Shown here piece after piece: positions 12,510 to 46,912 of a DNA stretch of 64,000 bases (position 1 is its first letter; every line of letters begins with the position of its first letter). This DNA is from Escherichia coli (lineage in GTDB: Bacteria; Pseudomonadota; Gammaproteobacteria; Enterobacterales; Enterobacteriaceae), in the NCBI RefSeq assembly GCF_002854065.1, contig NZ_CP024147.1; one strand, given 5' to 3'. The translations under genes were made by a program, and so were the position numbers. The notes beneath the pieces were generated by a model, which searched no databases, was not told the DNA's origin, and worked only from the letters and a program-made list of their open reading frames with translations.

Positions 12510-15617
<3,108 letters not shown>

Positions 15618-15732
15618 GATTTTCCTTCCCCGTACCACGGGAGATAATGAAAAGAGGCCACATTATTACCATTCTTTTAGTGTGGTTTATTTGATCTCTC
15701 TCGCGGTTAGCCACTTAGTTTTTCATGGATTT

Positions 15733-17013
15733 CTATAAATTGCCGAGGGGGAACAAGGCCGGGAGCTGCGACAGCAAATACAAAATAAGTCCAATACAAC
15801 CGCCAACCAGCGTACCGTTGACACGGATAAACTGGAGATCTTTGCCGATATTTAACTCGATTTGCCGCGACATGTCCCGTGCGTCCCAGCTTTTTACCGT
15901 GTCGCTGATATGGCGAGTCAGGAATGCGGAAAACTCAGGCGCAATGCGGTGTGCGGCTTGTTCCAGATGACCATTTAACGACGCCCGCAAGGCATCATCG
16001 GCAATTAACGTTTCGCCAAACCATTGACCAGCCCGCGCGATACGTTCTTTCACACGAGAATCTTCACTGTTGATATCCGCTTTCAGCCATTCCCGTAAAT
16101 CCCCCCACAATTCACTGAGATAGCGGTTAAAAGCTTCATCTTCTTTCAGATAGCTTTTTACGGCATCGGCTCGCGCCGCCATTTCCGGATCGTTTTTCAG
16201 TTTCTCGATCAGGGCGAAGGTAGCGCGATCAAACGCATGGCGGATCTGATGCGCACGATCGCGGCTGATATCATCAAGCAAAGAATTCACCGCGTCAGAA
16301 ACCAACTCCGCGCTATGTTCGCCCAGCCATTCAGTGGGCAAAATTTTGGCTTTCAGTGGATGCTCGCTCTCCAGCCAGCGAACAATTTGCTGGGCAATAA
16401 ACTTGCGCGATTTATCGCGCTGGAGAAGGGCGATCAACTGTGCGATCAGCGTATCCAGCAGCACCTGATGACGATCGTTTTTAGTCATACTCTCCAGCAT
16501 CAACGCACTGGTGCCAGAAAGATCGACTTTATCAATCGCCCGGTGGACCGCGCGCTTAAGCAGGCGCTGAATACGCGCATCATCGGTTAGTTCAAGAAAA
16601 CCGCTCATGATCTGCAACAGATGCTGACCAACGCGGCGGGCGTTTTCTGGCTGACTAAACCAGTTGCCAATCAACAACGCCGGTTCGTGACGTCGAATCA
16701 ATGCCACCAGCGATTGGGTATCGAGAAATTTTTCCTGCACGAACTGGCCGAGATTTTCGCCAATCCGGTCTTTATTACGCGGAATAATCGCCGTATGACG
16801 AGAAATGATCGGAATCGGCACGCGGCGAAACAGCGCCACCACCGCAAACCAGTCCGCCAGCGCGCCGACCATCGCCGCTTCAGCAATCGCCTTCACGCCG
16901 CTCACCCAAAAATTGGGCGGCAAAAACAGCGTAACGACAAAGGTAGCAGCGGCGATAAGCAGTAAAGAGAGCGCCAACATTTTGGCGCGTCTGAGTTCAA
17001 TGAGTTTATTCAT
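15733..17013 (-). CDS. yjiN: Inner-membrane protein YjiN (DUF445 family)
   Basis: Track ORF 15733..17145 trimmed to ATG 17013 ([25 protein letters not shown]...), 426 aa. Confidence 0.8.
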
Positions 17014-17053
17014 AATGTTAAGAATAGAGCCTGACGGCAGGATCGCGCAAAAA

Positions 17054-18286
17054 TCACCGCTCCTCCGCCAGCTCGGCAGCCTGATGTTGGCGCACGCGAT
17101 TAAGCAATCCGGCCAGGGTGAAAACGACGATAACGCCTGCCACAACGGCTAACAGATGAAACGGCAAGCGACCGCTGTTAAACCACAGCCAGCGGCCGAT
17201 TTCGACCGAGACAGACATCACCATCAGGATCACCATATTCAGCGATGCGGAGACGGTCCCTTTCGGTAAGTTATTGGAAAACAGCGTAAAGCGGAATAAG
17301 GTCGGGAAAATCAAACCAATCCCGAAAGCATACAGACTGGTGCCCAGCACCGACCACAGCCAGACGTGCGGTGACAGCAGATTGCCGATAATCAACAGCG
17401 CGAGGCCAACCAGTTGAAGGGGTACGGCACGCCAGATAAAGCGCGGTTCGGTCGGATCTTTAACGAAACGCGCCACGATGGCATTCGCGACAATCACCGC
17501 GCCGAACACCGGAACCTGTGTCCAGGCGAACTGCGAAGTTGTTAAGCCGCCCGCGTCGATCAGGATCACCGGCGAGACAGCCACCCAACTCATCATGGGG
17601 ATATAGCTTAAAGAGATGGTTGCTGCGCCAAAGAGGAACAGCCGATTGCAAAAGACATTACGAAAATCGCGCAAGACGCTTTTGGCGCTAAATGGAACCG
17701 CGCCGCGCTTCACCGTCTCTGGCATCGCCAGCAGTAAGCCAACAAATGAGATAAAACCCATAACCGCAATGATGGCAAAAAGGACTTTCCAGTGCACAAA
17801 GTGCATCAGAGCTGCGCCGGAAAGCGGGCCAATAATCGGCGCAATCAGTACGATGGAGGTGATAATCGCCATCAACTTGATCCCTTTTGTCTGTCCGAAC
17901 GCCTCCTGCACCGTGACATAACCAACGGTGGCAATAAAACAGATACTGGTGCCCTGAATTGCACGCGCGATAAGAAACTGTGTCATAGACGTTGTGAACA
18001 TTGTCGCAGCGCAGGCAAGGGTAAATATTAGCGCCCCGGTAATCAGCACCGGCCTGCGGCCAACCCTGTCGGAAAGCGGCCCCAGCAGCCACTGCAATGC
18101 CATGCCTCCAGCGAGATAGAGACTGACGGCAGCCGGGGCCAGACTGACATCGGCATTAAAATCACGGACCACATTAATGATCCCTGGCTGGATCAGGTCC
18201 GTCGACAGATACGCAGCAAAGTCATACAAAATCAACGCCATCGGGAAAAACAGCGTGGCGGCATGGCGGGCAAAAAAACGTGGCAT
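17054..18286 (-). CDS. mdtM: MFS multidrug efflux transporter MdtM (YjiO)
   Basis: Track ORF trimmed to [23 protein letters not shown]..., 410 aa. Confidence 0.85.
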
Positions 18287-18600
18287 AACAAACAACTCCT
18301 TGTCCGGAGAACCCCAATGGGGAAAACGAAATTCAATACCGTCGGTAATGACGAAAGGCAGGCGAGAAGGACAAATGTACTGAATTTCATGTAATCAACC
18401 ACACTGCCTGCGAATACACAGACAGAGAAATACCTTCTGACTCCAGGTCAGAATGTATAACGATTACAAATAGTCATCAGCACATTACACCTCTTTAATT
18501 GATGGCTTGCATAGAAAATATACACCTTAAGTGTAATTAAAATTTGGTAATGCTGCCAACTTACTGATTTAGTGTATGATGGTGATTTTAAGGTGCTTGC

Positions 18601-18876
18601 GTGGCTTCCATTTCCATCAGATGTCCTTCCTGCTCCACTACTGAAGGCGTGGTGCGTAACGGCAAAAGCACTGCCGGACATCAGCGCTATCTCTGCTCTC
18701 ATTGCCGTAAAACATGGCAACTACAGTTCACTTACACCGCCTCTCAGCCCGGTACGCACCAGAAAATCATTGATATGGCCATGAATGGCGTCGGATGTCG
18801 CGCCAGTGCACGCATTATGGGCGTTGGCCTCAACACGGTTTTACGTCACTTAAAAAACTCAGGCCGCAGTCGGTAA
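18601..18876 (+). CDS. insA: IS1 InsA (DNA-binding regulator, zinc-finger CPSC...CSHC)
   Basis: Track ORF, 91 aa, GTG start, [37 protein letters not shown]... Confidence 0.85.
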
Positions 18877-19298
18877 CCTCGCGCATACAACCGGGCAGTG
18901 ATGTGATTGTCTGCGCTGAAATGGACGAACAGTGGGGCTACGTCGGTGCTAAATCACGTCAGCGCTGGCTGTTTTACGCGTATGACAGGATACGGAGGAC
19001 GGTTGTGGCGCACGTCTTCGGTGAACGCACTCTGGCCACACTGGAGCGTCTTCTGAGCCTGCTGTCGGCCTTTGAGGTCGTAGTATAGATGACGGATGGC
19101 TGGCCGCTGTATGAATCACGCCTGAAGGGAAAGCTGCACGTTATCAGCAAGCGTTACACTCAGCGCATTGAGCGACATAACCTGAATCTGAGACAACATC
19201 TGGCAAGGCTGGGACGGAAGTCACTGTCGTTCTCAAAATCGGTGGAGCTGCATGACAAGGTCATCGGGCATTATCTGAACATAAAACACTATCAGTAA
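18795..19298 (+). pseudogene. insB: IS1 insB' transposase frame interrupted by an in-frame TAG (expected Trp codon) at 19086..19088
   Basis: Track splits the frame into 18795..19088 (...LLSAFEVVV*) and 19089..19298 ([14 protein letters not shown]...). As I recall it, canonical IS1 reads ...DVVIWMTDGW... through this point. Confidence 0.7.
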
Positions 19299-19439
19299 GT
19301 TGGAGTCATTACCCGACAGCGAGGTGTTTAGTGTGCCATGTCAGGCGAGAAATTCTATTGGATGAATCAAGTCCAACTTACTCATTGTCAATTTCATGGT
19401 TGATTATTCGAAACGTGATGCTATTTCCAACATCAACGC

Positions 19440-19481
19440 TATAATTGCAGAATAATTGTAGATACATTTTTGTATATACAA
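19440..19481 (+). promoter_or_regulatory. Putative brnTA promoter (-10 TATAAT) and operator-like inverted repeat TTGTAGATACA-tttt-TGTATATACAA
   Basis: Perfect tataat at about 19440..19445; 11-bp inverted repeat (10 of 11 matching) at about 19456..19481, just upstream of the AGGGA Shine-Dalgarno of brnT. Confidence 0.4.
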
Positions 19482-19496
19482 TTAGGGATGGCAATT

Positions 19497-19784
19497 ATGC
19501 CAATGGAGTTTGAATGGGATGAAAACAAGGCCAAAAGTAATCGGGTGAAACATGGCATCCGCTTTGAAGATGCGGTGTTATTGTTTGATGATCCACAACA
19601 TTTGTCACAGCAAGAACGCATAGAAAACGGTGAGTATCGCTGGCAGACAATCGGCCTGGTTTACGGCATCGTGGTTATTCTGGTTGCGCATACCATCCGT
19701 TTCGAAAGCGGAAATGAAATTATTCGAATCATCAGTGCACGAAAAGCAGATCGTAAAGAGAGGAATCGCTATGAGCATGGTTAA
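19497..19784 (+). CDS. brnT: BrnT-like toxin (DUF497, RelE/ParE-superfamily ribonuclease fold), 95 aa
   Basis: Track ORF 19470..19784 trimmed to MPMEFEWDENKAKSNRVKHGIRFEDAVLLFDDP...IIRIISARKADRKERNRYEHG; N-terminal FEWDE.K...KHG and C-terminal RIISARKA are hallmarks of DUF497. Confidence 0.8.
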   Translation: MPMEFEWDENKAKSNRVKHGIRFEDAVLLFDDPQHLSQQERIENGEYRWQTIGLVYGIVVILVAHTIRFESGNEIIRIISARKADRKERNRYEHG

Positions 19785-20073
19785 ACATAAACGAGGGACC
19801 TCCTCTACACTCGATGTGCAGCATGAGGCCGAACTGAAGGCGCTGACGAATAAATCCGACGAAGATATTGATTACAGTGATATCCCACCTTCCAGCGATG
19901 AGCAATGGTCTAACGCCGAACGCGGTAAGTTTTATCGGCCATTGAAAACTCAGGCTTCGGTGCGTATTGATGCTGATGTGATGGAATGGTTGAAGCGACC
20001 AGGTAAAGGCTATCAAACTCGCCTGAACGCAATTTTACGTGAAGCGATGCTGCGCGATCAGAACAAAAAATAA
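19771..20073 (+). CDS. brnA: BrnA-like antitoxin (DUF4415, ribbon-helix-helix type), 100 aa
   Basis: In-frame ATG within track ORF 19630..20073: MSMVKHKRGTSS...VRIDADVMEWLKRPGKGYQTRLNAILREAML; start overlaps the brnT 3' end by 14 nt; GAGAGGAA Shine-Dalgarno. Confidence 0.8.
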   Translation: MSMVKHKRGTSSTLDVQHEAELKALTNKSDEDIDYSDIPPSSDEQWSNAERGKFYRPLKTQASVRIDADVMEWLKRPGKGYQTRLNAILREAMLRDQNKK

Positions 20074-20077
20074 TTCA

Positions 20078-20095
20078 GGCCGCCACATGGCGGCC
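20078..20095. terminator. GC hairpin between convergent brnA and yjiA
   Basis: ggccgcc-acat-ggcggcc perfect 7-bp stem; no T-run, so intrinsic terminator function is uncertain. Confidence 0.35.
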
Positions 20096-20106
20096 ATCAT
20101 CCAAAA

Positions 20107-21063
20107 TTACTTCCTCAACCCCGCAAACGCTGCCCGAATCTCTTCCTCCGGCAACTGAATCCCGATAAACACCATTGTGCTATGCGGTTTTTCATCGCCC
20201 CACGGGCGGTCCCAGTCGGCGCTGTAGAGGCGCTGGACGCCCTGGAACAGCAGGCGGTTAGGTTCGCCGTCAATCCACAGCATCCCTTTGTAACGCAGCA
20301 GTTTATCTGCCGATTCCAGAAGCAGGTTTTCCATCACCCGGGAAACTTCGCTGATATCTACCGGGTAATCCAGTTCCACCACAATCGACGAAATATCGTT
20401 TTGTTTATCCGCGATAAAGTGGAAACGCGGTTTGGTGCTGACGACGTTCTCTTCCAGCATAAAACCGTTGGTGTTGAACAGCAGGCCCAGGTCGATGTCG
20501 CCGTGGGTGACGGTGTAGACCGGTGCACGGGCGTTGATGCGCGCCAGGCGTTCACGCAGTTTTTCTGCTTCGCCTGCGACGTCGGTTTTGGTCAGCAGAA
20601 TACGGTCGGCGTAGCCAACCTGGGACTGGGCGATGGTGAACTGGTTCATCTGCTCGTCGGCATGTACCGCATCCACCAGCGCAATCACACCGTCCAGCAG
20701 GTAACGCTGGCATAAAATCTCATGGGAGAAAAAGGTCTGAATAATCGGGCCGGGATCGGCCATGCCGGTGCATTCAATGACCAGACGGTCAAACTGAATA
20801 TTGCCCTTGTCGAGATTATCCAGCAGGTCGAGTAGTGCGTCTTCCAGCTCGTTGGAGCGCGAACAGCAGATGCAGCCGTTGGTCAGCGTTTTGATCTGCG
20901 TGGCGCGGTCGCCAATTAGTTGATCATCAACGGAGACTTCGCCGAATTCGTTTTCAATCACGGCAATCTTGTAGCCGTGTTGTTCGTTAAGAATATGGCG
21001 CAGCAGGGTGGTTTTTCCCGCGCCTAAAAAACCGGTGAGTAGGGTAACTGCAATCGGGTTCAT
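20107..21063 (-). CDS. yjiA: CobW/P47K-family GTPase (zinc-chaperone-like) YjiA
   Basis: Track ORF 20107..21147 trimmed to MNPIAVTLLTGFLGAGKTTLLRHIL... (P-loop GAGKTT), 318 aa. Confidence 0.9.
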   Translation of the reverse strand: MNPIAVTLLTGFLGAGKTTLLRHILNEQHGYKIAVIENEFGEVSVDDQLIGDRATQIKTLTNGCICCSRSNELEDALLDLLDNLDKGNIQFDRLVIECTGMADPGPIIQTFFSHEILCQRYLLDGVIALVDAVHADEQMNQFTIAQSQVGYADRILLTKTDVAGEAEKLRERLARINARAPVYTVTHGDIDLGLLFNTNGFMLEENVVSTKPRFHFIADKQNDISSIVVELDYPVDISEVSRVMENLLLESADKLLRYKGMLWIDGEPNRLLFQGVQRLYSADWDRPWGDEKPHSTMVFIGIQLPEEEIRAAFAGLRK

Positions 21064-21326: not shown

Positions 21327-23477
21327 TTAGTGGTGCGAAGAGATCTTCACGCCGCCTTCCGGGATTGGAACGTACGGTGTTTCTTTGTCAGTACGTTTGT
21401 CGCTGTTACGCACCGCAAGCCAGGTTTTGAAACCGTAGAAGATGATGCTGTACACCACAATCAGGAACAGAATACTCAGGCCCGCGTTGGTGTAGTTGTT
21501 CACAACGATGTGGTTCATGTTGGCAATCTGCTGCGCCGTCAGGTCAGTACCGTTAGCAATCTTCTCTTTGTACTGGCTTGCCATGTAGAAGAAGCCTTCC
21601 ATCTGCGGGTTGGTGCTGAACAGTTTCAGACCCAGCGCCCAGGTGGTGCAGATAAGCAGCCATACAGCCGGAACAACAGTTACCCAGATGTATTGGGTGC
21701 GCTTCATCTTAATCAGCACAACGGTGCCCAGTACCAGCGCTACGGCTGCCAGCATCTGGTTGGAGATACCGAACAGCGGCCACAGGCTCTTAACGCCGCC
21801 CAGCGGATCGACCACGCCCTGATACAGCAGGTAGCCCCACAGACCCACACAGCCCGCAGTACCGATGATACCGGCAACCAGAGAGTCGGTTTTTTTCAGG
21901 AATGGGATGAAGTTACCCAGCAGGTCTTGCAGCATAAAGCGGCCAGAACGGGTACCCGCATCCAGCGCGGTCAGGATGAACAGGGCTTCGAACAGAATAC
22001 CGAAGTGATACCAGAAGCCCATGTCAGCCATCGGCAGCACTTTGTGGAACACATGAGCGATACCTACCGCCAGCGTCGGCGCACCACCTGCACGGTTCAG
22101 GACAGAAGGCTCACCAATGTCTTTCGCGGTTTGCAGGATCTGCTCTGGCGAAATCACGAAGCCCCAGGAGCTGACGGTCGCCGCCGCGTGTGCGGTAACG
22201 TCTTTCAGCTGCGCCATGATGATCGGCGCGTTCTCGCCACCCATTTCATGCAGGTTAGGCATGGTGATGCCAAGGCCCGCAGGCGGGGTATTCATCGCGA
22301 AGTAAAGACCCGGTTCGATGATGGACGCAGCAACCAGCGCCATAATCGCCACGAAGGACTCCATCAGCATTGCGCCGTAGCCAATGAAACGCGCGTCGGT
22401 TTCGTTAGCCAGCAGTTTCGGCGTCGTACCGGAAGAGATCAGCGCGTGGAAGCCAGATACCGCACCACAGGCGATGGTGATGAACAGGAACGGGAACAGA
22501 GCGCCTTTCCACAGCGGGCCAGTACCGTCAATGTACTGGGTCATCGCAGGCATTTTCAGTTCCGGGTTCAGCACCACGATACCCAGCGCCAGGCCGACGA
22601 TAACGCCGATTTTCAGGAAGGTTGCCAGATAGTCGCGCGGTGCGAGGATCAGCCACACCGGCAGCAGTGCGGAAACAAACGCATAGCCAATCAGCGCGAA
22701 GGTAATGGTGGTGTCTTTAAAGGTCAGTGCCGGACCCCAGTACGGATCGTGAGCAATCACGCCACCGAAGTAGATAGAGGCAACCAGCAGCACGATACCA
22801 ATGACAGAGACTTCACCCACACGCCCCGGACGGATAAAGCGCATGTAGATACCCATAAACAGCGCAATCGGTACGGTTGAGCAAACGGTGAAGACACCCC
22901 ACGGACTTTCGGCCAGGGCTTTAACCACAATCAGCGCCAGGACGGCGAGGATGATGATCATGATTAAGAAACAGCCAAACAGCGCGATAGTCCCCGGTAC
23001 TGGTCCCATCTCTTCTTTGATCATCTCACCAAGAGATGCGCCATTACGGCGAGAGGAGATAAACAGCACCATAAAGTCCTGAACCGCACCGGCCAGCACG
23101 ACCCCCGCCAGCAGCCACAGCGTGCCAGGCAGGTAGCCCATCTGCGCGGCGAGAACCGGACCCACCAGCGGACCAGCACCGGCGATAGCGGCGAAGTGGT
23201 GACCAAACAACACGTAACGGTTGGTCGGAACGTAGTTCAGACCGTCGTTGTTAATAACCGCAGGCGTCGCGCGCGTGGGGTCGAGTTTCATCACCTTCTG
23301 GGCGATGTACAGACTGTAGTAGCGATACGCCACCAGATACACCGACACAGAGGCGACCACGATCCACAGGGCGCTGACGTGCTCCCCCCGACGTAATGCA
23401 ACTACCGCGAGGCAGAATGCACCGATGATTCCGAGAATCACCCAGGGTATGTGCTTGAATATCTTTTTAGTATCCAT
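21327..23477 (-). CDS. btsT: CstA-family pyruvate/H+ symporter BtsT (YjiY)
   Basis: Track ORF 21327..23492 trimmed to MDTKKIFKHIPWVILGIIGAF..., 716 aa. Confidence 0.9.
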   Translation of the reverse strand: MDTKKIFKHIPWVILGIIGAFCLAVVALRRGEHVSALWIVVASVSVYLVAYRYYSLYIAQKVMKLDPTRATPAVINNDGLNYVPTNRYVLFGHHFAAIAGAGPLVGPVLAAQMGYLPGTLWLLAGVVLAGAVQDFMVLFISSRRNGASLGEMIKEEMGPVPGTIALFGCFLIMIIILAVLALIVVKALAESPWGVFTVCSTVPIALFMGIYMRFIRPGRVGEVSVIGIVLLVASIYFGGVIAHDPYWGPALTFKDTTITFALIGYAFVSALLPVWLILAPRDYLATFLKIGVIVGLALGIVVLNPELKMPAMTQYIDGTGPLWKGALFPFLFITIACGAVSGFHALISSGTTPKLLANETDARFIGYGAMLMESFVAIMALVAASIIEPGLYFAMNTPPAGLGITMPNLHEMGGENAPIIMAQLKDVTAHAAATVSSWGFVISPEQILQTAKDIGEPSVLNRAGGAPTLAVGIAHVFHKVLPMADMGFWYHFGILFEALFILTALDAGTRSGRFMLQDLLGNFIPFLKKTDSLVAGIIGTAGCVGLWGYLLYQGVVDPLGGVKSLWPLFGISNQMLAAVALVLGTVVLIKMKRTQYIWVTVVPAVWLLICTTWALGLKLFSTNPQMEGFFYMASQYKEKIANGTDLTAQQIANMNHIVVNNYTNAGLSILFLIVVYSIIFYGFKTWLAVRNSDKRTDKETPYVPIPEGGVKISSHH

Positions 23478-23683
23478 AGTAAAACCTGGCATGTATTGAT
23501 TAATAGTTGGCCGAAGCCGTTCTAGGTTTGCGTTGCGTTTGAGGAGGTAAATTGACCGCTATCCTGTAGTGATGTTGCCAGAGTTACGCGCGCGTAAAGT
23601 AAGGTAAATAACTGAGTGGTTATTTTAGGGATGTAAGCGGTCAGTTTTGCGGTTGAGCGGCAAAGGCGTCGTTTAAGTGACGA

Positions 23684-23711
23684 TAAATATGTGATTCATA
23701 TCACATATTTA
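23684..23711. promoter_or_regulatory. Near-consensus CRP site AAATATGTGATtcatATCACATATTT upstream of btsT
   Basis: Perfect 11-bp inverted repeat with TGTGA-N6-TCACA core; CRP assignment is by consensus match. Confidence 0.55.
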
Positions 23712-23796
23712 TATTGTGAGTAATTTATGTAAATAATGGCTTTTTAAATTCAGAGTGTGAATAAAATTACTCGGCGTAATCTCCGCGGGATATTCA

Positions 23797-23823
23797 TAAA
23801 GTTTTTCCTTTCCTGGCCGAAAA
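23797..23823 (+). promoter_or_regulatory. Sigma-28 (FliA) class-3 promoter of tsr: TAAAGTTT-N11-GCCGAAAA
   Basis: Matches the sigma-28 consensus TAAAGTTT-N11-GCCGATAA about 30 nt upstream of the tsr ATG. Confidence 0.6.
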
Positions 23824-23853
23824 TCTTGCATCGGTCCACAGGAAAGAGAAACC

Positions 23854-25518
23854 ATGTTAAAACGTATCAAAATTGTGACCAGCTTACTGCTGGTTTTGGC
23901 CGTTTTTGGCCTTTTACAACTGACATCAGGCGGTCTGTTCTTTAATGCCTTAAAGAATGACAAAGAAAATTTCACTGTTTTACAAACCATTCGCCAGCAG
24001 CAATCCACGCTGAATGGCAGCTGGGTCGCGTTGTTGCAGACGCGTAACACCCTCAACCGCGCGGGTATCCGCTACATGATGGATCAGAATAATATTGGTA
24101 GCGGTTCAACCGTTGCTGAGCTGATGGAGAGTGCCAGTATTTCGCTGAAACAGGCGGAAAAAAACTGGGCGGATTACGAAGCGTTGCCGCGTGACCCGCG
24201 TCAGAGCACCGCCGCAGCGGCAGAGATCAAACGTAATTACGATATTTATCACAATGCGCTGGCGGAGCTGATCCAACTGTTAGGTGCAGGCAAAATCAAC
24301 GAGTTCTTTGATCAGCCGACCCAGGGATATCAGGACGGTTTCGAGAAGCAGTATGTGGCTTACATGGAGCAAAACGATCGGCTCTATGATATCGCCGTCA
24401 GCGATAATAATGCCTCCTACAGCCAGGCGATGTGGATTCTGGTGGGCGTGATGATCGTCGTACTGGCAGTCATCTTCGCCGTCTGGTTCGGTATTAAAGC
24501 CTCGTTGGTAGCGCCAATGAATCGCCTGATTGACAGCATTCGTCATATTGCAGGCGGCGATCTGGTGAAACCGATTGAGGTGGATGGCTCTAATGAGATG
24601 GGGCAACTGGCAGAGAGTTTGCGCCATATGCAGGGAGAGCTGATGCGTACCGTCGGTGATGTGCGCAACGGGGCCAATGCCATCTATAGCGGTGCCAGCG
24701 AAATCGCTACCGGCAATAACGATCTCTCTTCGCGCACCGAGCAACAGGCCGCTTCGCTGGAAGAGACGGCAGCCAGCATGGAGCAACTGACCGCAACGGT
24801 GAAACAGAACGCCGAAAATGCGCGCCAGGCCAGCCACCTGGCGTTAAGTGCTTCTGAAACGGCGCAACGCGGCGGCAAAGTGGTAGATAACGTGGTGCAG
24901 ACTATGCGCGATATCTCCACCAGTTCGCAGAAAATCGCCGATATTATCAGCGTAATTGACGGCATTGCCTTCCAGACCAATATTCTGGCTTTGAACGCGG
25001 CGGTTGAAGCAGCGCGCGCGGGTGAGCAAGGGCGCGGTTTTGCGGTGGTCGCGGGTGAAGTGCGTAATCTGGCCCAGCGCAGCGCTCAGGCGGCTCGTGA
25101 AATTAAAAGCCTGATTGAAGACTCGGTGGGGAAAGTAGATGTTGGCTCTACGCTGGTCGAAAGCGCAGGGGAAACAATGGCGGAGATTGTCAGTGCCGTG
25201 ACCCGCGTGACGGACATTATGGGCGAAATTGCTTCTGCTTCTGATGAGCAGAGCCGTGGTATCGATCAGGTTGGCTTAGCGGTTGCTGAGATGGACCGGG
25301 TAACTCAACAGAACGCTGCGCTGGTGGAAGAATCTGCCGCTGCCGCCGCCGCGCTGGAAGAGCAGGCCAGTCGCCTGACCGAAGCTGTGGCAGTGTTCCG
25401 GATTCAGCAACAGCAGCAACAGCAGCGTGAAACATCGGCTGTGGTAAAAAACGTGACGCCAGCTACGCCGCGTAAAATGGCAGTGGCAGATAGCGGGGAG
25501 AACTGGGAAACGTTTTAA
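23854..25518 (+). CDS. tsr: Methyl-accepting chemotaxis protein I (serine chemoreceptor)
   Basis: Track ORF, 554 aa, ends with the NWETF pentapeptide; carries a 7-residue poly-Q tract just before the C-terminal tail. Confidence 0.95.

Positions 25519-46505: not shown

Positions 46506-46912
<407 letters not shown>

Follow-up and report, generated by a model that had tools for sequence, protein, structure and literature searches.

A probable degenerate allele of the Escherichia coli immigration control region that retains brnTA beside a single defective IS1 copy

The window analysed here is a stretch of 64,000 nucleotides of Escherichia coli contig NZ_CP024147.1 (assembly GCF_002854065.1) in which the interval between mdtM and yjiA measures 1,820 bp, against 19,389 bp in K-12 MG1655 (4568520-4587908). 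From left to right it presents mdtM on the minus strand, a spacer of 259 bp, a 768-bp IS1F-like element, brnT, brnA and, on the minus strand again, yjiA (Table 1), and the RefSeq annotation of the genome of ESY002 gives mdtM, IS1, brnT, brnA and yjiA in the same arrangement. An earlier note made on this DNA had read the interval as one of 1.8 kb in which mdtM is followed after about 260 bp by an IS1 copy, then by a BrnT/BrnA-like pair and then by yjiA, a description that is exact. The K-12 gene order that it gave likewise agrees with the MG1655 annotation, in which ytiE, rpnD (yjiPQ), yjiR, yjiS, yjiT, yjiV, mcrCB, symE/symR, hsdSMR and mrr occupy the interval. Nor had it seen a restriction-modification gene anywhere in the window, and none is annotated in the stretch of ESY002, from gntP to sltY, that is collinear with it. 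An Rfam scan of positions 18000-20200 found neither symR, the absence of which was expected, nor any other RNA family.

Table 1. Position, strand and basis of assignment of the features at the mdtM-yjiA locus (window coordinates).
Feature	Position	Strand	Basis
mdtM, left anchor, intact, 5' end K-12-like	17054-18286	-	NCBIfam NF011932 MdtM equivalog, 855 bits; RefSeq annotation of collinear ESY002
mdtM upstream region, retained, K-12-like	18287-18545	.	K-12 alignment, BLAST breakpoints, K-12 annotation
ytiE, small ORF in retained mdtM upstream region	18448-18483	-	
IS1F-like insertion sequence, 768 bp	18546-19313	+	Inverted-repeat search; identity to IS1 copies
insA of IS1, intact, 91 aa	18601-18876	+	NCBIfam IS1 zinc-binding domain and IS1 transposase N-terminus; translation
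insB frame of IS1, broken by TAG at 19086-19088	18795-19298	+	Translation; RefSeq note 'programmed frameshift; internal stop'
brnTA upstream region, remnant of divergent Mrr_cat–brnT intergenic region	19314-19496	+	Alignment to C 691-04A
brnT, toxin, 95 aa from RefSeq start (alternative ATG at 19488)	19497-19784	+	PF04365
brnA, antitoxin, 100 aa	19771-20073	+	PF14384; 7VD7 chain B
GC-rich hairpin GGCCGCC-ACAT-GGCGGCC between convergent brnA and yjiA	20078-20095	.	Terminator scan; fold -16.5 kcal/mol, z = -4.4
yjiA, COG0523 GTPase, right anchor	20107-21063	-	NCBIfam NF008578 equivalog, 683 bits; K-12 alignment

Sibley and Raleigh are said to have described the E. coli immigration control region (ICR) in 2004. 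The locus studied here shares with the ICR, listed as hotspot 36 in a 2025 EcoSal review (PMC12707154), its chromosomal position, its anchors (yjiN/mdtM and yjiA) and its cassette-like variability, and the earlier description of the site as a known variable hotspot is borne out by that review, which also counts brnAT among three toxin-antitoxin systems of the ICR. Alignment to MG1655 and other strains places the left breakpoint at 18545/18546 (K-12 position 4568790), where homology to K-12, to B2 strains and to E. coli C ends; within the retained region upstream of mdtM, K-12 differs by an 11-bp indel between 18370 and 18371. The right breakpoint lies at 20106/20107, so that the yjiA stop codon is the exact end of the variable region and K-12 homology restarts at 20107. 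The hairpin just inside this boundary is followed by a T-run on the minus strand and is, therefore, likely the terminator of yjiA; it is part of the cassette and not of the K-12-like framework.

The IS1 element is bounded by terminal inverted repeats of 23 bp each (18546-18568 and 19291-19313) without a single mismatch, where no chance matches are expected, and the inverted-repeat search returned it as the only IS1 copy within the window. It is 98.8% identical to IS1F of K-12 and up to 99.4% identical to other IS1 copies. The A-run frameshift motif TTAAAAAACTC is present at ~18850, after insA, and RefSeq treats the transposase gene as a pseudogene. Because of the TAG codon in the insB frame, the transposase is truncated and the copy defective. 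No target-site duplication of 8-11 bp accompanies the element: its left flank, TAAAATTT, and its right flank, CGACAGCGA, are unlike each other, which indicates that the site was probably rearranged after IS1 had inserted. Transport of brnTA on an IS1 composite transposon was rejected, since there is only one IS1 here and brnTA is found without IS1 in 881 genomes.

The identification of the neighbouring genes as a BrnT/BrnA-like pair proved to be genuine. BrnT matches PF04365 over the complete model (positions 1-77 of 77, E=5.3e-24) and is ~80% identical to the toxin chain, chain A, of PDB 7VD7 (E=4.8e-52), with a further, distant match to BrnT of Brucella, 3U97 (E=1e-4). BrnA matches all of PF14384 (model 1-68 of 68, E=3.1e-17) with its residues 37-93, which take in the C-terminal ribbon-helix-helix part, and its residues 14-57 match the toxin-binding segment of the antitoxin, chain B, in 7VD7 (E=4.9e-16). 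By these matches both proteins are clear members of their Pfam families. The genes are bicistronic with the toxin first and an overlap of 14 nt, in line with the toxin-then-antitoxin order reported for PF_BrnT (PMC11980606). Pfam families, toxin-first overlapping operon and five RNase residues are what they have in common with the BrnT/BrnA system of Brucella abortus (3U97) and with the enterobacterial complex 7VD7. These residues in the Brucella toxin are Asp6, Glu7, Lys9, Arg41 and Glu78 (PMC5086665), with which D8, E9, K11, R48 and E88 of the window's BrnT align; the Glu at the position equivalent to Glu7 is an Ala in the B2 alleles and in 7VD7. The brnT product is, therefore, predicted to be a ribonuclease toxin of the RelE/BECR fold. 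PADLOC returned no match to BrnT or BrnA, even at E<=1, NCBIfam holds no model that matches either protein, and a literature search found neither a study of brnTA specific to E. coli nor the source publication of 7VD7.

Upstream of brnT lies a perfect -10 hexamer, TATAAT (19440-19445), and between it and the brnT start codon a palindrome of 14+14 nt (19453-19484) that is 93% complementary. We regard the hexamer as a putative brnTA promoter and the palindrome as a candidate operator for BrnA; a consensus promoter scan called no plus-strand promoter at this hexamer and palindrome. What survives in the emptied locus would be a canonical type II toxin-antitoxin operon, in which BrnT is predicted to act as a ribonuclease of the RelE superfamily that blocks translation, and BrnA to neutralise BrnT with its N-terminal segment. 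If the BrnTA system of Brucella is a guide, the ribbon-helix-helix domain at the C-terminus of BrnA may repress brnTA, probably at the palindrome 5' of brnT.

The origin of this module becomes clearer from alleles of the ICR that are not collapsed. In the B2 strain C 691-04A the order is symE-hsdR-hsdS-hsdM-Mrr_cat-brnT-brnA-yjiA, in which the Mrr_cat gene, transcribed divergently from brnT, encodes a restriction endonuclease (Mrr_cat domain, E=4e-29), and in MMC-J-0091 the genes stand in the same order but hsd is decayed; these two were the genomes with Mrr_cat next to brnT that were opened for their upstream content. Homology of the window to both begins at position 19314, a point that in C 691-04A precedes the start codon of Mrr_cat by 15 bp. 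The window and this type IB-style cassette have brnTA and the 183 bp upstream of it in common (97.2-98.7% identical) as well as the boundary at the yjiA stop codon, but in the window IS1 stands in place of everything to the left of the point 15 bp before the Mrr_cat start and ~11.3 kb is missing. The term 'collapsed', which the earlier note had chosen, is justified, as a target-site duplication is missing at the IS1 and the right flank starts abruptly inside the Mrr_cat–brnT intergenic region. Type I and type IV restriction genes are absent from the window allele, as are rpnD, yjiR, yjiS and symE, the last four of which other alleles keep. Because only the IS1 pseudogene, brnT and brnA occur at the site, it is 'empty' according to a survey of E. 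coli defence islands that applies this word to sites with three genes or fewer (PMC10121019).

Another 'empty' ICR is that of E. coli C, and the two resemble each other in being natural restriction-poor alleles of one locus. However, E. coli C keeps rpn, yjiR, yjiS, a truncated hsdR and a DUF262 (GmrSD-like) gene adjoining yjiA, and, unlike the window, it has neither IS1 nor brnTA. An identity of the two alleles was rejected on account of these different structures, and the window allele is a reduction independent of, and more extreme than, that of E. coli C.

The frequency of the arrangement was determined in 5426 complete E. coli genomes. The brnTA module occurs in 2112 of them; it is a chromosomal single-copy module in 2111 of the 2112 occurrences. 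In 881 genomes Mrr_cat lies next to brnT, with brnTA adjoining yjiA, and in 1112 (about 20%) the junction between IS1 and brnT (GGAGTCATTACC|CGACAGCGAGG) is present. The left junction of the window occurs in 450 genomes, and 664 others carry an alternative one, in which an ectopic yghX'-yghW' patch, a 265-bp fragment of a distant locus, is fused in frame to mdtM; the two together make 1114, against 1112 right junctions, and cover every IS1 form. To find a donor of this patch, yghX in its native place was searched for an IS1, but it is uninterrupted in 5414 of the 5426 genomes. The census also bears on the chance that hsd, mcr and mrr are really present and were collapsed across an IS1 repeat during assembly. 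IS1 is multicopy in E. coli (matches at a median of about 10-11 places per genome) and a common cause of misassembly. However, the same left and right junctions recur in 450 and 1112 independent complete genomes, respectively, mostly long-read and of unrelated sources, and the flanks of the locus, 18 kb on its left and 44 kb on its right, are collinear and free of R-M genes. We can give an assembly artefact practically no weight.

Between the two forms the IS1-brnTA core differs at only 5 of 1561 nt (0.3%), whereas the flanking mdtM and yjiA diverge by 2.3-3%. From this contrast it follows that the right junction has a single origin, and the presence of so uniform a core inside more divergent flanks would suggest its horizontal spread. 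We consider the locus to be a degenerate, 'emptied' ICR allele that arose by an IS1-associated deletion and retained brnTA, with a probability of roughly 0.85. The opposite polarity, in which an empty, compact locus came first and the R-M cassettes now seen in K-12, B2 and other strains entered it afterwards, has in its favour that the ICR behaves as a replaceable cassette between conserved anchors (PMC12707154, PMC2481252) and that the compact form is the commonest context of brnTA (1112 versus 881 genomes). It does not explain well, however, why IS1 is without a target-site duplication, why an orphaned piece of the Mrr_cat–brnT intergenic region remains that stops 15 bp short of the start codon of a gene kept in 881 genomes, or why the left flank breaks off midway through an mdtM-rpnD spacer that is unbroken in K-12, B2 strains and E. 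coli C. Since the core is, moreover, much younger than its flanks, this polarity seems highly unlikely.

Highly unlikely, too, is delivery by IS1, according to which brnTA would be a mobile anti-phage module and not a resident of the ICR. The locus is a defence hotspot, toxin-antitoxin pairs can act in abortive infection and modules of the RelE superfamily occur in defence contexts (PMC11980606). Yet brnTA adjoins yjiA without any IS1 in the 881 genomes with Mrr_cat, it is a single chromosomal gene pair in nearly every occurrence, and neither protein is matched by PADLOC.

If the locus is a deletion derivative, its history may be pictured as follows. The ancestral cassette, as in B2 and other strains, would have been mdtM-rpnD-yjiR-yjiS-symE-type I hsdR/S/M-Mrr_cat-brnT-brnA-yjiA. 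An IS1F-like element would have arrived 15 bp ahead of the start codon of Mrr_cat, after which an IS1-associated deletion would have taken ~11.3 kb leftwards, to 260 bp upstream of mdtM, either as a transposase-mediated adjacent deletion or through recombination of two IS1 copies. The product would be one IS1 without a target-site duplication, now itself defective because of the nonsense codon in insB. None of the 5426 complete genomes has an intermediate with IS1 5' of brnT, a 9-bp duplication and Mrr_cat still in place, and a search of JGI metagenome contigs for the simple insertion (TTAACGACAGCG followed by 0-3 nt and the left end of IS1) gave 0 matches; the order of events and their mechanism are, therefore, put forward as a proposal.

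Deletions promoted by IS1 in adjacent DNA are classical behaviour of this element. The locus resembles their products in its single IS1 with intact ends, in the lack of a flanking duplication and in having a fixed end on the one side and, in the population, two different endpoints on the other. It differs from them in the nonsense codon in insB and in the captured 265-bp fragment of a distant locus at the second endpoint, and this yghX'-yghW' patch of the sister form counts against a plain adjacent deletion. The insB stop is common to both population forms, so that IS1 may already have been defective when one or both of the left junctions arose; a defective IS1 would have depended on transposase provided in trans, unless the event was independent of transposase. 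RecA-dependent recombination between two direct IS1 repeats, one upstream of mdtM and the other upstream of brnT, would leave, as either route does, a single IS1 without matching duplications at its flanks, and the shared stop, which makes transposase activity in cis questionable, speaks for it. Furthermore, IS1 copies of the locus contain gene-conversion tracts, e.g., in E24377A, where 11 substitutions and a 1-bp deletion are clustered at 18909-19010, and such tracts argue that IS1-IS1 recombination is active. On the other hand, no genome has IS1 at one site and not at the other (450 + 664 versus 1112), and a fixed right junction combined with two different left ones is the classical picture of nested adjacent deletions from an IS end. 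Recombination between two IS1 copies is, therefore, quite conceivable as the route of the deletion, although we lean against it.

The arrangement is real but ordinary and already known. It occupies a restriction region of E. coli whose hypervariability is textbook knowledge, its cargo belongs to a Pfam-defined family with a close homologue of solved structure, and more than 1100 complete genomes already show exactly this arrangement in their annotation. Since the toxin-antitoxin family was already listed for the ICR and the arrangement is found in ~20% of genomes, the earlier note overrated the locus. What the census adds is that ~20% of complete E. coli genomes lack any restriction system encoded in the ICR, owing to a single ancient rearrangement that is linked to IS1 and occurs in two left-end variants. 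The corresponding loss of ICR-encoded restriction, which we would expect as a phenotype, is relevant to the choice of strains for transformation, conjugation and phage work and to the interpretation of such work.

The population data are also a clean natural case of a toxin-antitoxin pair that has outlasted its linked defence cassette. This may be taken further by regarding brnTA as an addictive 'anchor' of the ICR cassette, such that deletions and swaps stop at or inside brnT and brnA is never lost; loss of the antitoxin would be lethal and events at the locus would thus be forced to spare brnA. We consider such a role rather improbable, and likewise the related idea that, in strains deprived of their ICR restriction enzymes, the retained pair, now possibly read through from IS1, gives a residual abortive-infection defence. 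The anchor role, if true, would explain why the IS1 deletion ends just 5' of the putative brnTA promoter, why the variable region always ends at the yjiA stop codon, and why some other alleles carry an orphan brnA together with a truncated brnT.

The interval 18287-20106 runs from the start codon of mdtM to the stop codon of yjiA and consists of three parts (see table), i.e., the sequence upstream of mdtM, the only IS1 copy of the window, and a brnTA module. The earlier note had described an IS1 about 260 bp from mdtM (259 bp by measurement), followed by a BrnT/BrnA-like pair and then yjiA, and coordinates, Pfam matches, and RefSeq labels agree with this description. For the closest complete genome, that of strain ESY002 (99.9% identity), RefSeq annotates an identical gene set, with the labels [quoted passage not shown] "BrnT family toxin," and "BrnA antitoxin family protein." From gntP to sltY the window and ESY002 are collinear, and no restriction or modification genes are annotated across this stretch, as expected from the note's claim that the window lacks them.

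Features of the mdtM-yjiA interval and its two flanking genes
Feature	Position	Length	Strand	Remarks
mdtM	17054-18286		minus	NCBIfam MdtM equivalog, 855 bits
mdtM upstream sequence	18287-18545	259 bp		tiny ORF ytiE retained
IS1	18546-19313	768 bp		both 23-bp terminal inverted repeats, 0 mismatches (inverted-repeat search)
brnTA module	19314-20106	793 bp		brnT, brnA, and GC-rich hairpin
brnT	19497-19784			toxin gene
brnA	19771-20073			overlaps brnT by 14 nt
GC-rich hairpin	20078-20095			terminator scan and fold
yjiA	20107-21063		minus	NCBIfam equivalog, 683 bits

In MG1655 the distance between mdtM and yjiA is 19,389 bp, and the annotated order (mdtM - ytiE - rpnD(yjiPQ) - yjiR - yjiS - yjiT - yjiV - mcrC - mcrB - symE/symR - hsdS - hsdM - hsdR - mrr - yjiA) agrees with the gene order given in the earlier note. 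Alignment against MG1655 and other strains placed the edges at 18545/18546, where homology with K-12 ends (K-12 4568790, ~270 bp upstream of the mdtM ATG), and at 20107, where it restarts precisely at the yjiA stop codon. At 18370/18371, ~85 bp before the mdtM start codon, 11 bp present in K-12 (GCAACGAGACT) are missing from the window. The "empty" immigration control region (ICR) of E. coli C has a different layout (yjiA - DUF262 gene - truncated hsdR - yjiS - yjiR - rpn - mdtM). There, an apparently intact 550-aa DUF262 (GmrSD-like) gene adjoins yjiA (L009, the E. coli C allele, 21502-23995) and the truncated hsdR is of type I; with these two genes present, the ICR of this "restrictionless" strain is not literally empty.

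The brnTA module occurs as a single, chromosomal copy in 2112 of the 5426 complete E. coli genomes that form our census set. In the B2 strain C 691-04A the order is mdtM - rpn - yjiR - yjiS - symE - hsdR - hsdS - hsdM - "restriction endonuclease" - brnT - brnA - yjiA, the endonuclease containing an Mrr_cat domain (E=4e-29); strain MMC-J-0091 shares this layout, its hsd cluster carrying an internal deletion. Homology of the window with both strains begins at 19314, 15 bp upstream of the start codon of their divergently transcribed Mrr_cat gene. The Mrr_cat-brnT adjacency is uninterrupted in 881 genomes of the set, and in ~1100 others the match breaks off right at the IS1 junction. Relative to the B2 layout, ~11.3 kb is gone from the window, with IS1 in its place.

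The ends of this IS1 are intact and a target-site duplication is absent (flanks TAAAATTT and CGACAGCGA). Its left flank breaks off within a spacer that is unbroken in K-12, B2 strains, and E. coli C, while its right flank starts midway in the intergenic region of the Mrr_cat gene, which the window does not possess. These observations speak against an ancestral empty site; the missing duplication and both flanks indicate that the locus is a deletion product, and they bear out the earlier reading of a collapsed interval. Two routes, transposase-mediated adjacent deletion or recombination between two IS1 copies, could each have produced the locus, since either predicts an intact-ended IS1 without target-site duplication, as found. 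Neither the 5426 complete genomes nor the metagenomes scanned yielded an intermediate allele. The IS1 is now defective, because the insB frame contains a TAG stop (19086-19088). Three of its substitutions (18637, 19082, and 19181) occur in none of four compared copies at the locus and may stem from gene conversion by another IS1 copy; the brnTA module next to it shares 100% identity with that of the closest relatives. The IS1 of E24377A at the same site carries 10-11 substitutions and a 1-bp deletion within ~100 bp (equivalent to window 18909-19010), a clustering that resembles gene conversion by a different IS1 variant.

Of the census genomes, 1112 have the IS1|brnT right junction, and every IS1 form has one of two left junctions, that of the window (450 genomes) or that of a sister form (664 genomes). 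In the sister form, IS1 abuts a 265-bp ectopic patch, comprising the yghX 3' end, the yghX-yghW spacer, and yghW codons 1-16, which lies between the defective IS1 and mdtM (19738-20000 in L005, strain THO-008) and is not found in the window. A 7-nt microhomology (CATGCCG) links the patch in frame to mdtM codon 8, so that the yghW promoter is predicted to drive a YghW(1-16)-MdtM(8-410) chimera. The native yghX-yghW locus is retained, yghX being intact in 5414 of the 5426 genomes. Both forms share the TAG stop, and their IS1-brnTA cores (18546-20106) differ at 5 of 1561 positions (0.3%), whereas mdtM and yjiA are 2.3-3% divergent; for yjiM, yjiN, mdtM, and yjiA (14000-18265 and 20107-21063) divergence from sister-form genomes is 2.3-4%, shifting abruptly at the cassette edges. 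The shared stop and the contrast between core and flanks indicate that the right junction arose once and is younger than its surroundings, and suggest that the core spread horizontally or that the flanks were turned over by recombination. A young junction of single origin fits the high polymorphism and cassette exchange long known at the ICR (PMC12707154). This junction with its two left ends, and the yghW'-'mdtM chimera outside the window, are mildly interesting. In strain 720632 (NZ_CP025842.1, 2397632-2404920) the left and right IS1 junctions, which usually share one strand at a distance of ~770 bp, are on opposite strands and ~7 kb from each other; IS1 may have mediated a further inversion or insertion here.

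BrnT fits the PF04365 profile over its full length (E=5e-24), shares ~80% identity with the toxin chain of PDB 7VD7, and also aligns with Brucella abortus BrnT (3U97). Of the latter, Asp6, Glu7, Lys9, Arg41, and Glu78 were reported to be important for RNase activity (PMC5086665); all five are kept (D8, E9, K11, R48, and E88). Codon 9 (19521-19523), equivalent to Brucella Glu7, encodes Glu in the window and Ala in the B2-type alleles L004 and L013 and in 7VD7, so that activity may vary between the toxin alleles. BrnA matches PF14384 (E=3e-17) and, over residues 14-57, the 7VD7 antitoxin chain. The toxin-first order with overlap is usual for the family (PMC11980606). A 14+14-nt palindrome (19453-19484) lies downstream of a TATAAT box (19440-19445) and ahead of the brnT start codon. 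Judging from Brucella BrnTA, a repressor of its own promoter (PMC5086665; PMC11980606), this palindrome is a likely candidate for the operator. Neither protein matched the PADLOC defense models.

In some E. coli genomes brnT is truncated and brnA intact, and in ~330 genomes <80% of the module is covered. Two other ICR alleles are of this kind (L014 2671-3089 and L015 4001-4352): one has an internal deletion beside an intact Mrr_cat gene and hsdM, and in the other a different cassette (DNA methyltransferase, DUF262/DUF1524, Fic) ends within brnT. Loss of the toxin with retention of the antitoxin is the usual decay of toxin-antitoxin pairs. A mildly interesting though improbable idea is that the brnTA pair sets the limit of deletions at this locus.

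Variability of the ICR has been studied since the 1990s. [quoted passage not shown] With three genes or fewer, the site qualifies as an empty hotspot as defined in a survey of E. coli defense islands (PMC10121019), and it holds only remnants, a dead IS1 and a canonical brnTA pair. This arrangement is widespread (~20% of complete genomes), has been annotated before, and will not surprise specialists.

Elsewhere in the window, a 101-bp REP-type unit is repeated 3.8 times in tandem in the yjjW-yjjV spacer (46520-46906), with three Rfam naRNA4 matches; the array is approximately one unit longer than in ESY002.
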